DNA of 24,654 bases from positions 1 to 24,654 of IMG/VR virus record IMGVR_UViG_3300045988_113752, one strand, 5' to 3'. The stretch is from a virus. Its lineage: Duplodnaviria; Heunggongvirae; Uroviricota; Caudoviricetes. Positions 12,370 through 14,989 of the stretch are shown piece by piece (positions within the stretch are counted from its first letter, which is position 1; each line of letters opens with the position of its first letter). A program made the translations under genes and the position numbers. Under the pieces are notes generated by a model. The model had not been told where the DNA came from, searched no databases, and saw nothing but the letters and a program-made list of their open reading frames with translations.

Positions 12370-12933
12370 TTAGCATGATTCAGGGGAAACCCCAATATTA
12401 AATATGAGTGTCTCCCCTGAATCAGCATAATAATGTAATATTATTGACTTACGTTGTTTTCTTGCTTCGTAGAATAAACGCTCTTGCGGCGATAATTTGT
12501 GAAAACTGCCGGATGCACAATATATGTTTTTTAACTTTTCGCGGGTTTCTTTTATTGTATCTTCTGATATGTATTTTAGGTATTTATCCGTATAGATGTT
12601 GCTACTATAAGAAATTAATGTTTTGCTGTTGTTGTGATGTATTGTATTTTTATCGTTGAAGTCTGTATTTTTATTTACTGTCATTAGGTTTTTAATGATT
12701 ACATGTAATACAATAGTCTCCCCATCATCAATTCCATATTTGATGTCATAGTCAGTATATTTATTTGTTATACCGCTTCCTGATAGCGGCACTATGTACT
12801 CTGAGAAAAATGAGTTTGCCGCGTGACTATCAAGAGCAATAGCAGTTTGTTTGTGGTAAAAATAAAACAATATTGAGAGAGTCAAAATAATAGCGACGCC
12901 TAATGCAACCTTTAATATAGATATGGTTTTCAA
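12370..12933 (-). CDS. AT-rich accessory gene: signal-anchored or secreted protein of unknown function (candidate superinfection-exclusion-type moron)
   Basis: The track ORF (12370..12981) starts at TTG with no RBS. An internal TTG at 12933 has a perfect AAGGAG 7 nt upstream and gives N-terminus MKTISILKVALGVAIILTLSILFYFY, a signal peptide or anchor. The region is strongly AT-rich compared with its flanks. Confidence 0.45.
   Translation of the reverse strand: MKTISILKVALGVAIILTLSILFYFYHKQTAIALDSHAANSFFSEYIVPLSGSGITNKYTDYDIKYGIDDGETIVLHVIIKNLMTVNKNTDFNDKNTIHHNNSKTLISYSSNIYTDKYLKYISEDTIKETREKLKNIYCASGSFHKLSPQERLFYEARKQRKSIILHYYADSGETLIFNIGVSPESC
12377..12423. other. 11-bp inverted repeat (gattcagggga ... 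tcccctgaatc) with 25-nt loop, at the junction of convergent genes
   Basis: Perfect inverted repeat read directly from the sequence. It overlaps the 3' end of the minus-strand ORF. Confidence 0.3.
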
Positions 12934-13023
12934 AATATCGCTCCTTGTTGTAACATACATCAGTAATGTGGCGTTTTTCAATTGTATTAAAGACGTGTAA
13001 TATGTACACGCCTTTTGCTCTTC

Positions 13024-13455
13024 CTATTCAGGTATTTCAATTCCAAAACCATCTGCATCCCATGAGTTTTCACAGATGATGTAACCTAGTTCATTGAGCT
13101 TATTAAATGTTTTTTCAAAGATGATCTGGTAATCATTATCTGCAAGTGATTCCAGTTCAAGGTCATTAAGGTTTATATAAAAACTTGTATGTCCAAGTGT
13201 TATTTTCTTATTAATTTCATTAAAGGTTCTTTTGAAAATAATATTTGATATTTCATGTCGTGCATTGTTTGCAATGATTTTTGCTTCATAAGCAGAAATT
13301 ACGTCATCTTCATGAATATCTTTCAGAAAACTGGTGTCAAGACGTTGTACTATTTCAGCGTTCATTGATCGCTTATTGGCTTTTGCAGAAATTTCTATTT
13401 TTTCTTTTACTTCGACGGGAAGTCTGATCCTTAGTTGTGGATCTTCTCTGCTCAT
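13024..13455 (-). CDS. Mnt-like ribbon-helix-helix repressor with ~100-aa C-terminal extension
   Basis: N-terminus MSREDPQLRIRLPVEVKEKIEISAKANKRSMNAEIVQRL resembles P22 Mnt/Arc RHH domains as I recall them. Transcribed divergently from the Arc-like gene. Start chosen at the ATG giving MSRED; the track ORF starts 10 codons upstream. Confidence 0.55.
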   Translation of the reverse strand: MSREDPQLRIRLPVEVKEKIEISAKANKRSMNAEIVQRLDTSFLKDIHEDDVISAYEAKIIANNARHEISNIIFKRTFNEINKKITLGHTSFYINLNDLELESLADNDYQIIFEKTFNKLNELGYIICENSWDADGFGIEIPE

Positions 13456-13575
13456 GTTCTTCACCAAATATTGAGTTACTTGCAATGATTGAAGTATGCC
13501 TCACCGTGTGCTTGACATCAATGACGCACGGTGTGACAATTATTTTGCCCCACGGTGGGGCTAAGGAGATATGAA
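13456..13575. promoter_or_regulatory. Divergent promoter/operator region between the Mnt-like and Arc-like genes
   Basis: TTGACA at 13512-13517 with a weak -10 (gacaat) 17 nt downstream on the plus strand. Inverted half-sites CACCGTG (13502-13508) and CACGGTG (13527-13533) flank the -35; a third CACGGTG lies at 13551-13557. Confidence 0.45.
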
Positions 13576-13743
13576 ATGCAAAAAGCAAAAGAGATGTGTC
13601 AACGACGAGTTCGTTTTCCGGACGATGTGAAGTTAGCTATTGAAAGAAATGGCGAAAAAGAATGCCGAAAGTTCAATACAGAGATTATCTATCAGCTGAG
13701 GAAAGTGTATGGACTCACTGGTGAGAAGAATAGCGTGGCATAA
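13576..13743 (+). CDS. Arc-like ribbon-helix-helix repressor
   Basis: 55 aa from ATG 13576, with taaggag 8 nt upstream. RVRFPDDVKLAIERNGEKECRKFNTEIIYQLRKVY resembles P22 Arc. Directly upstream of the antirepressor gene. Confidence 0.6.
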   Translation: MQKAKEMCQRRVRFPDDVKLAIERNGEKECRKFNTEIIYQLRKVYGLTGEKNSVA

Positions 13744-13814
13744 AACAGCGAAGCCCCACGGTGGCCAGACCGTCAGGGCTTCAGTATCGTAAAACTACGT
13801 ATAGGAATTAACGA
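13742..13814 (-). ncRNA. Candidate sar-like antisense RNA covering the antirepressor RBS/start
   Basis: Minus-strand promoter TTGATA-N17-TATACT (plus coordinates 13849-13844 and 13826-13821) fires antisense across the ant RBS (13802-13805) and ATG (13816). A strong hairpin (13750-13782) is followed on the minus strand by GCUGUUUUA. Predicted length is ~70 nt. Confidence 0.4.
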
Positions 13815-13815
13815 C

Positions 13816-14754
13816 ATGACGAGTATAGCAACAGCAGTATCTACTATCAACGTGCCATTCCACGGCGCAGAGCTTTATGTTGTCAATCACAACGGCGAAC
13901 CGTATACCCCAATGAAACCTATCGTTGAGGGAATGGGGCTAGACTGGAAATCTCAACATAAGAAGATTTCTCAACGCTTCTCGAAGGGTATGGTGGAAAT
14001 CACCATACCTTCTGCCGGTGGGGTGCAAGCCATGATTTGTATGGCTTTACGAAAATTGGCAGCTTGGTTGAACAGCATCAGCCCTAACAAAGTCCGCCCT
14101 GAAATCCGCGACAAGGTAATCCAGTATCAGGAAGAGTGTGACGATGTGCTCTACGAGTACTGGACTAAAGGCCATGTGGTTAACCCACGCAAAGCTAAAA
14201 AGGCGTTGCCGGGTAAAATAACAACTGAACAGCAGGAAGCCATTAAACAACTCGTCATGAGTCGCGGTCAGTCTCTGCCAAAAGAAAAACAGGCTAAGGC
14301 GATGATCACCATGTGGTCGTCACTGAAATCTCATTTTGGCTGTTCGTACAAAGAAATTGGTGAAGATCAATTTGCCGAAGCGTTGTCTCTTGTTGCTCGG
14401 GTTCCGCTTGAAGGGGAGTATCTCCCTGCTGGATCTGCATCAGAGAATGATGAAGTGGCAGTCAAGATGTTAGATGCGCTTCGTGAGGCAATTAAAACAC
14501 AGACAAAATGTTATGGTTATCCACTGAAGCCCGGCTACCGTAGCCTGATTCATTCGCCGTCTGGTGTTCTCGGCCTGACGGAGAACTCACTGCTGATGAA
14601 TCTGCTGAACCAGTTACAGGAAGACGGGCACGATGTATCGGGCGCGGCGGCGGAGCTGACCACCATGTTCTGCTACATCGTCGGTGTGAGCAAATGCCTG
14701 CGTGATATCCAGACGCACGCGGAATACATCAACGACAAGGCAGGGTTCTTCTGA
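13816..14754 (+). CDS. Antirepressor-like protein (Ant-type N-terminal region plus shared C-terminal domain)
   Basis: 312 aa immediately downstream of the Arc-like gene, in the immI-like arrangement. The C-terminal ~78 aa are identical to the C-terminus of the Bro-N protein at 16006..16698. Confidence 0.55.
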   Translation: MTSIATAVSTINVPFHGAELYVVNHNGEPYTPMKPIVEGMGLDWKSQHKKISQRFSKGMVEITIPSAGGVQAMICMALRKLAAWLNSISPNKVRPEIRDKVIQYQEECDDVLYEYWTKGHVVNPRKAKKALPGKITTEQQEAIKQLVMSRGQSLPKEKQAKAMITMWSSLKSHFGCSYKEIGEDQFAEALSLVARVPLEGEYLPAGSASENDEVAVKMLDALREAIKTQTKCYGYPLKPGYRSLIHSPSGVLGLTENSLLMNLLNQLQEDGHDVSGAAAELTTMFCYIVGVSKCLRDIQTHAEYINDKAGFF

Positions 14755-14774
14755 CAGAACGGCGGCACAGGGAC
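14521..14774. repeat. Inverted repeat, left copy (~253 bp, ~97% identical to 15988..16240 in reverse complement)
   Basis: Aligned by hand: about 6 substitutions, all synonymous in the coding part, plus a small indel just after the stop codon. It encodes the shared antirepressor C-terminal domain. Confidence 0.8.
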
Positions 14775-14804
14775 GTGCAAAACGAAACTAGCGTGACATG
14801 TCAC

Positions 14805-14829
14805 AGGCCGCTTTCGCGGCCTTGTTTTT
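14805..14829. terminator. Bidirectional intrinsic terminator (AGGCCGC-tttc-GCGGCCT then TGTTTTT)
   Basis: 7-bp GC-rich stem, TTTC loop and T-run on the plus strand after the ant stop. It sits between convergent genes and is preceded by the perfect palindrome GTGACATGTCAC (14793-14804). Confidence 0.5.
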
Positions 14830-14989
14830 AACGAATGCCACCGCCGCCAGGGCGGGAATCCGCAGAACGCCCACCGCAGCGGGAGCCGTCAGCGGCAGTA
14901 TCGCTGTCGTGCTGACAACGACCGGCAAAGGCCTGAGTTGAAGCTACCAGAGACAACAAAACGAACAGTGCAGCAAATGCTTTTTTCAT
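14828..14989 (-). CDS. Small secreted Cys-containing peptide (hypothetical)
   Basis: Internal ATG at 14989 gives MKKAFAALFVLLSLVASTQAFA, a classic signal peptide, followed by a ~31-aa Gly/Arg/Asp-rich mature part with 2 Cys. The track ORF extends to 15061. Confidence 0.4.
   Translation of the reverse strand: MKKAFAALFVLLSLVASTQAFAGRCQHDSDTAADGSRCGGRSADSRPGGGGIR

Follow-up and report, generated by a model that had tools for sequence, protein, structure and literature searches.

Does one regulator bind both the promoter and the intercistronic spacer of a phage immunity module? The question is raised by a DNA of 24,654 nucleotides from a virus of the Caudoviricetes (IMG/VR record IMGVR_UViG_3300045988_113752, positions 1 to 24,654, called the window throughout), in which the heptamer CACSGTG recurs three times in the control region of an immunity I (immI) module, between divergent genes for a Mnt-like and an Arc-like repressor, and once more in the spacer between the arc-like gene and the antirepressor gene ant. 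In a preliminary description this recurrence had been taken as a hint of one regulator acting at both places. The analysis reported here makes it probable that the region is the control centre of an immI module of the type known from phage P22, in which the three sites at the promoter (O1, O2 and O3) are candidate operators and the fourth copy (site 4, 13753-13764) is an arm of the terminator of the antisense RNA sar, which resembles them by chance.

The positions of the motifs are as first described. Sequence reading and pattern searches place CACCGTG at 13502-13508 and CACGGTG at 13527-13533 and 13551-13557, the first two 18 base pairs (bp) apart on both sides of the -35 hexamer TTGACA (13512-17), and find the 12-mer GCCCCACGGTGG exactly twice, at 13547-13558 and 13753-13764, the second copy within a hairpin at 13750-13782. 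As CACSGTG is self-complementary except for its central base, the four motifs are copies of one palindromic heptamer, and the 'reverse complement' relation pointed out between two of them means merely that the same heptamer occurs with G or C at its centre. In the window five copies are observed against about 2.5 expected; four within 262 bp arose in 0 of 3000 Markov-1 simulations and three within 56 bp in 1 of 3000. The promoter cluster of three palindromes is not given by chance. Taken by itself, the exact 12-mer repeat carries no statistical significance, as 35% of the simulated sequences have at least one direct pair less than 300 bp apart, and nothing in the finding is weaker than its 'reuse'. 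Three exact direct 12-mer pairs at such distances are present in the window, the repeat of GCCCCACGGTGG included; the other two, CTGACTGGGAAT and TGGAAGAAATAG, lie at 2744/3007 and 6931/7213.

The control region holds two promoters and three sites:

13493-13521, minus strand: Pmnt, a predicted promoter with the -35 hexamer TTGATG (13516-13521), a 17-bp spacer and the -10 hexamer CATACT (13493-13498).
13498-13512, no strand assigned: O1, GCCTCACCGTGTGCT, centre 13505, within the Pmnt spacer and abutting the -35 hexamer of Pant; a degenerate copy of the family sequence GCCCCAC(G/C)GTGGGGT.
13512-13540, plus strand: Pant, with the -35 hexamer TTGACA, a 17-bp spacer and the extended -10 element TGtGACAAT (13532-40); 10/12 with TG in the promoter scan (-10 hexamer GACAAT).
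13522-13538, no strand assigned: O2, the pseudo-palindrome TGACGCACGGTGTGACA, centre 13530, between the -35 and -10 hexamers of Pant and overlapping the extended -10 element.
13547-13561, no strand assigned: O3, the perfect 15-bp palindrome GCCCCAC-G-GTGGGGC (GCCCCACGGTGGGGC), centre 13554, 14 bp after the -10 hexamer, with the first copy of the 12-mer.

The window is an Escherichia coli prophage close to Escherichia phage TL-2011b, to which it is 95.9% identical over 12900-14900 and 100% identical over 13440-13830, a segment found with 100% identity in several E. coli chromosomes as well. Relatives were gathered in three ways: genomes were scanned with the Mnt-like protein, viral contigs (IMG/VR) with the Arc-like protein, and matches to the 14-mer ACGCACGGTGTGAC were sought. 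The first delivered two Xenorhabdus prophages with Mnt-like proteins 58-60% identical to that of the window and with the positions of O1-O3 kept, the second 62 loci of 62-100% identity (26 distinct) with the three sites kept in position, while for the third 80 matches were fetched, 55 of them in this context. The pooled set comprises 62 distinct control regions and 57 distinct spacers downstream of arc. Throughout the 62 control regions, which span the Enterobacterales, O1-O3 keep their positions, and every locus with the operator array encodes both an Arc-type and a Mnt-type protein, so that the operator-like character ascribed to the motifs of the control region is borne out, and with it the conservation to be looked for in related prophages; for the copy in the spacer, as described below, this conservation fails. 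The 23 control regions from the protein searches, aligned as A1, share the layout AAATTATG-CCCCAC(S)GTGGGG-TTGACnnCAATGACG-CACGGTG-TGACAnT, followed by 7-10 variable bases, GCCyCAC(N)GTGrGGC, variable sequence and the Shine-Dalgarno sequence.

Each site has its own pattern of conservation. O1 is of the full palindrome type, varying by single bases alone, in 57/62 distinct control regions, and the form GCCTCACCGTGTG in place of the usual GCCCCACSGTGGG is restricted to 5/62, all of the TL-2011b type and the window among them. O2 shows no variation across the 23 Arc-like control regions of A1, a set gathered through protein similarity with no use of the motif, and its 17-mer ATGACGCACGGTGTGAC is identical in 60/62 regions of the pooled set, which was partly selected by this motif. 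O3 stands out in A1 as a conserved stretch whose flanks vary; any of the four bases can occupy its centre, and at positions -4/+4 all four combinations C/G, T/G, C/A and T/A are found, with C-A mismatches in several loci. The full set of -4/+4 combinations argues for recognition by a protein rather than for an RNA stem. From locus to locus O2 and O3 differ in their spacing by a few bp, which suggests that the two are occupied independently.

In the two Xenorhabdus loci (L004 and L005, 2395-2445, minus strand) the third site is a unit of the O2 type which includes a second copy of the -10 element, so that two copies of CACGGTGTGACAAT are found at a distance of about 25 bp; a full palindrome forms the first site, and the gene after arc is not a P22-type ant.

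The position of Pant is homologous to that of the annotated Pant of P22, and O3 lies at or just after its predicted start. Pmnt would be arranged back-to-back with Pant, the -35 hexamers overlapping by 2 bp, which would place O1 in the spacer of Pmnt just as O2 lies in that of Pant. In relatives TTGATG-17-CATAAT is found at the same place and is called by the promoter scan in one of them (L066), and TTG together with the A and T of the -10 hexamer are invariant columns of A1.

The P22 record provides the closest point of comparison. There the -35 hexamer TTGACA of Pant is at 14793-98, the operator Oarc occupies 14798-14818 in the promoter spacer, and Omnt (14822-44, AGGTCCACGGTGGACCT) contains the perfect 17-bp dyad AGGTCCAC-G-GTGGACCT, centred 15 bp after the -10 hexamer as compared with 14 bp for O3. 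Common to both phages is the placement of one operator in the Pant spacer (O2 and Oarc) and of one just after the -10 hexamer (O3 and Omnt), and O3 shares with Omnt the inner 9 bp CCACGGTGG, the central G and a perfect dyad of similar length, and so has the make-up of a Mnt-type operator, a dyad of about 17 bp at the Pant start with CCAC-G-GTGG at its centre. With CCACGGTGG and an Omnt-like placement, O3 is therefore homologous to the Mnt operator both in sequence and in position. The outer half-site bases are, on the other hand, GCC C here and AGGT in P22, a difference which parallels the changes H6Q and N8R in the DNA-reading strand of the Mnt-like protein. Phage CUS-3 differs from the window in its repressor genes and in the repeated motif of its promoter, ATGCGTACC (L002, 2100-2160), which is placed as O2 and O3 are, one copy between the -35 and -10 hexamers and one just after the -10 hexamer; this suggests the same architecture with another specificity.

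The genes on both sides of the control region are the following:

13024-13455, minus strand: mnt-like repressor gene, divergent, 143 amino acids, with the N-terminal ribbon-helix-helix head MSREDPQLRIRLP...
13576-13743, plus strand: arc-like repressor gene, 55 amino acids, with the Shine-Dalgarno sequence AGGAG at 13564-13568.
13816-14754, plus strand: antirepressor gene ant, 312 amino acids; Pfam PF10547 P22_AR_N, E 6e-45; PHROG 524/245 'anti-repressor Ant'.

The Mnt-like protein matches Pfam PF03869 Arc (E 1e-14), has the Mnt of P22 as its top PDB match (1mnt, E 3.5e-7) and is 32% identical to it in BLASTP (E 3e-14); for its C-terminal alpha/beta domain of about 90 amino acids no clear known fold emerged. 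The Arc-like protein is 33% identical to P22 Arc in BLASTP (E 4e-5), belongs to PHROG 228 'Arc-like repressor' (E 3e-5) and is annotated as Arc-like repressor in the TL-2011b record. A Pfam search with it remained without match, a PDB search gave spurious summed matches to TALE repeats alone, which were discarded, and a search of NCBIfam added nothing useful.

In each locus the divergent gene begins MSREDPQ[LF]RIRLP...NxRSMNAEI, and this head is invariant, while the C-terminal parts of the Mnt-like proteins fall into at least four unrelated types (86-91, 117-126, 124 and 142-153 amino acids for the whole proteins). The gene downstream of the control region encodes in each locus the Arc-like protein, ...MYQR[KR][VI]RFP. 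Proteins of the Mnt-like family occur widely in Enterobacterales, under the bare annotation 'Arc family DNA-binding protein'.

How the two proteins might read one core is suggested by their recognition strands. In the structure of Arc with its operator, alternate residues of the strand read the bases, and in experiments by Knight and Sauer in which Arc and Mnt residues were swapped, alternate strand residues reportedly did so as well. The structure and the swap experiments are both cited in PMC3413123. Aligned pairwise and residue for residue, the Arc-like protein has Q9/R11/R13 where P22 Arc has Q9/N11/R13, and in a further pairwise alignment the Mnt-like protein has Q7/R9/R11 where P22 Mnt has H/N/R. 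By these alignments, the predicted DNA-facing triad Gln-x-Arg-x-Arg is the same in both repressors, in P22 it is Q-N-R in Arc and H-N-R in Mnt, and a common triad would explain why three sites share one core. The whole family may run on one code, Q-R-R reading CAC-N-GTG, for both repressors and three operators, which would set it apart from P22 with its two codes. Most likely, O1-O3, 15-17 bp long with the core CAC-N-GTG, act as operators for the two ribbon-helix-helix repressors of the module.

More distant Mnt-like relatives (L006, L026 and L027) have different reading strands and different palindromes, for example CCATAGC..GCTATGG. In L027 (upstream of 1501) and L026, 41-45% identical in the head and with the strand FVVRLP or FLVRLP, the gene is preceded by the repeated palindrome CCATAGC-N5-GCTATGG. 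These relatives fit, suggestively, a joint change of reading strand and operator.

The spacer downstream of arc has a different content, namely the gene of an antisense RNA with its signals:

13747-13814, minus strand: sar-type antisense RNA gene, covering the ribosome-binding site of ant; Rfam RF00262 over the full model length.
13822-13850, minus strand: Psar-like promoter inside the start of ant, TTGATA, 17 bp, TATACT, with TG; 10/12 in the scan and at the place of the annotated P22 Psar.
13750-13782, minus strand: stem-loop of the sar terminator, GAAGCCC...GGGCTTC (GAAGCCCCACGGTGGCCAGACCGTCAGGGCTTC), followed by GCUGUUUU on the minus strand (13742-13749); it contains the second copy of the 12-mer.

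The Rfam match, at 44.8 bits (E 6e-8), exceeds the gathering score of 43. The terminator hairpin folds at -19.5 kcal/mol (z = -4.1), and the run of U 3' of it consists in the window of just four U, starting 4 nucleotides after the stem; a simple scan for terminators calls the homologue in L066 but not the hairpin of the window. Computed on the sar strand, the folding energies of nine hairpin variants with different inner stems range from -17 to -25 kcal/mol, and a U-run comes after every one of them. Consensus folding of 13 variants, in which MAFFT misaligned the inner stems, recovered the invariant outer stem alone and one compensatory pair. The sar terminator is conserved as structure, not as sequence. 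With the P22 sar terminator (15021-58, GAAGCCCCAACTGCGGTAACAGTCAGGGCTTC) it shares the outer stem, while the inner stem is different yet self-complementary, ACGGU/ACCGU with the loop CUGGCC as compared with ACUGU/GCAGU and the loop UACC in P22. It is this variant inner stem that creates the resemblance to an operator, and the 12-mer is composed of the conserved stem bases GCCCCA and one of several interchangeable inner stems.

With these elements the P22-type immI module, also called 'ant moron' (PMC2629481), is complete in the window, as judged from the gene matches, the Pant- and Psar-like promoters and the full-length sar. A mnt-like gene on the minus strand and arc-like and ant genes on the plus strand are laid out across one short control region as annotated in TL-2011b and in P22, with two repressors of the Arc/Mnt ribbon-helix-helix type (the Arc-like one more weakly assigned), an antirepressor of the P22 Ant type with the P22_AR_N domain, and a sar RNA over the ribosome-binding site of ant. 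As in P22, sar matches its family in full length, its promoter lies within the start of ant and its terminator, homologous to that of P22, in the spacer between arc and ant. The differences concern the wiring. Three sites with one core stand here against two unrelated operators in P22, the additional one, O1, upstream of the Pant -35 hexamer; Pmnt is predicted to lie back-to-back with Pant in place of the completely overlapping promoters of P22; the short tetramerisation helix of P22 Mnt contrasts with the 90-amino-acid alpha/beta C-terminal domain here; and the phage is epsilon15/TL-2011b-like, not P22-like. The locus is an ordinary, though undescribed, variant of the P22-type circuit with a somewhat different architecture.

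Could the fourth copy nevertheless be an auxiliary operator, so that a single repressor, such as a Mnt-like protein in tetrameric or higher-order form, binds O3 and the spacer 206 bp away and loops the DNA or blocks transcription, coupling repression of the promoter to the control of ant or sar? The 12-base identity spans the whole left half-site, the centre and 4/7 bases of the right half-site of O3, and the large extra C-terminal domain of the Mnt-like protein could mediate oligomerisation. The right half-site is broken, however (GTGGCCA against GTGGGGC in O3), and neither a Mnt-type dyad nor co-conservation with the repressor was found for site 4. CACSGTG occurs in 1/57 distinct spacers, that of the allele of TL-2011b and the window, with AACGGTG in 6 and other inner stems in 50, although O1-O3 and the reading heads of the proteins are kept. 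Even where the Arc-like protein is identical, in 17 IMG/VR loci, an A at the position of 13757 breaks the heptamer in 6, as it does in two E. coli prophages; the C and A alleles fold equally well, at -19.5 and -19.1 kcal/mol, the base being at a wobble or bulge position. In several loci with the A allele the central base of O3 is C, so that the identity of the 12-mer is lost there twice over. The sequence of site 4 is fully explained as the sar terminator, and the homologous hairpins of P22, CUS-3 and Xenorhabdus bear no similarity to an operator. Covariation of operator and hairpin was considered and rejected: among 31 distinct locus pairs the longest word common to control region and spacer is 12 in the TL-2011b allele only and at most 8 elsewhere, the best direct one being ACGGTGG, with no coupling between the two, and since identical control regions go with different hairpins, as in L064 and L075, control region and hairpin recombine freely. 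A regulator shared between promoter and intercistronic site, as proposed at the outset, is accordingly not upheld, and the auxiliary operator is very unlikely; most likely, the resemblance of site 4 to O3 is a lineage-specific coincidence.

Two further explanations place the repeat or the palindrome at the level of RNA. The 3' stem of sar (CCACCGUGGGGC) might pair with the 12-mer in a hairpin of the arc-ant leader, so that sar would act in trans on the leader and in cis on the ribosome-binding site of ant. Such complementarity follows directly from a direct repeat, and with a start about 7 bp after the -10 hexamer the leader would open with the hairpin GCCCCACGGUGGGGC (about -14.5 kcal/mol for the first 54 nucleotides); both partners, however, are buried in stable stems, and the pairing shrinks to at most 7 nucleotides in close relatives with AACGGTG and/or C at the O3 centre and is absent elsewhere in the family. 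Unconserved even in the nearest relatives, trans pairing of sar and leader was rejected as extremely unlikely. Alternatively, O3 might be kept mainly as a 5'-terminal stem-loop which stabilises the arc-ant mRNA, the heptamers of O1 and O2 being incidental parts of the promoters. Stem-loops that protect the 5' ends of mRNAs are well known, and O3 would form a 6-bp stem with a 3-nucleotide loop at the predicted 5' end. O1 and O2, though, lie upstream of the Pant start and have the same core, the combinations at -4/+4 with their C-A mismatches are not the pattern of a maintained stem, and the free centre and 15-bp dyad match an operator for a dimer of dimers like Omnt of P22. A main role as RNA element is unlikely and, in view of the C-A mismatches and of two sites upstream of the transcript, is kept as a minor rival alone; the roles of operator and RNA stem-loop are mutually compatible. 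A long shot, finally, very improbable and less plausible than a code shared by both repressors, is that in the TL-2011b lineage the 12-mer of the sar terminator is a newly evolved working element, be it an auxiliary half-operator which brings the Mnt-like or the Arc-like repressor to the spacer between arc and ant and acts via looping or on sar termination, or a partner in sar-leader pairing, which would tie transcriptional to antisense control.

Some points weigh against this explanation of the region as a whole. The 50 bp with O1, both -35 hexamers and O2 are conserved as a single block, so that conservation there cannot tell operator from promoter bases. Pmnt matches the consensus in the window at just 8/12, for which reason the promoter scan does not call it there. 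The resemblance of the Arc-like protein to Arc is weak (E about 1e-5, none in Pfam). Two flavours of site, CCCCAC..GTGGGG and CGCAC..GTGTGAC, are swapped between positions 1 and 3 when the window is compared with Xenorhabdus; the assignment of proteins to sites on the pattern of P22 could for this reason be mistaken and is of low confidence. No paper on operators of this family or on the immI of TL-2011b turned up in a literature search. The lack of conservation makes a function of site 4 unlikely, though it weighs less against a young, lineage-specific role.

With the three sites as operators, the following course of events can be proposed on the model of P22, whose circuit is reportedly known from studies by Susskind, Youderian, Sauer and McClure. 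O3, perhaps together with O1, would be occupied in the lysogen by the Mnt-like protein, which would block transcription of arc and ant from Pant. After infection Pant would fire and the Arc-like protein would accumulate, to bind O2 and possibly other sites and to shut off Pant and Pmnt; O1, in the spacer of Pmnt, might serve repression or autoregulation of the mnt-like gene. Falling transcription from Pant would free Psar from convergent interference, and sar, by pairing with the ribosome-binding site of ant, would repress its translation.

Further observations concern the surroundings of the switch. The sar hairpin marks mosaic joints in the window (13750-13782), in CUS-3 (L002, 2503-2535) and in E. 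coli N25 (L209). The window and CUS-3 have homologous hairpins and homologous starts of ant, and the similarity begins exactly at the hairpin, at 13750 in the window and at the 'boundary sequence' bsq2 annotated in CUS-3; in E. coli N25 P22-like sequence begins directly after the hairpin. Loci with identical control regions have different hairpins and different downstream types of antirepressor.

In the published TL-2011b sequence (L001, about 2030-2035, equivalent to about 13429-13431 in the window) one extra C is present, gatcCCCttag as compared with gatCCttag in the window, which causes a frameshift within the DNA-binding strand of the mnt-like gene and turns PQLRIRLP into PQLRDQTSR and a stop. 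Because of this shift the TL-2011b record annotates just a truncated open reading frame of 113 amino acids; the extra C is either a sequencing error or the mark of a phage mutant in the maintenance repressor. Just past the mnt-like gene, where P22 has sieA, an open reading frame of 203 amino acids (12370-12981, minus strand) encodes a protein with a likely N-terminal membrane helix, which belongs to PHROG 8033 (unknown function) and was without match in Pfam.

With respect to significance, Arc, Mnt, sar and ant of P22 are a textbook model for DNA recognition by ribbon-helix-helix proteins and for antisense control. The switch family of the window is large in Enterobacterales, with members in Escherichia, Salmonella, Klebsiella, Enterobacter, Yersinia, Proteus and Xenorhabdus. 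In this family three operators appear to share one core and two repressors the same reading residues, and the one reading head is joined with C-terminal domains of several unrelated kinds. The family is as such a natural experiment on the evolution of specificity and circuit wiring, for which the window gives concrete sites.

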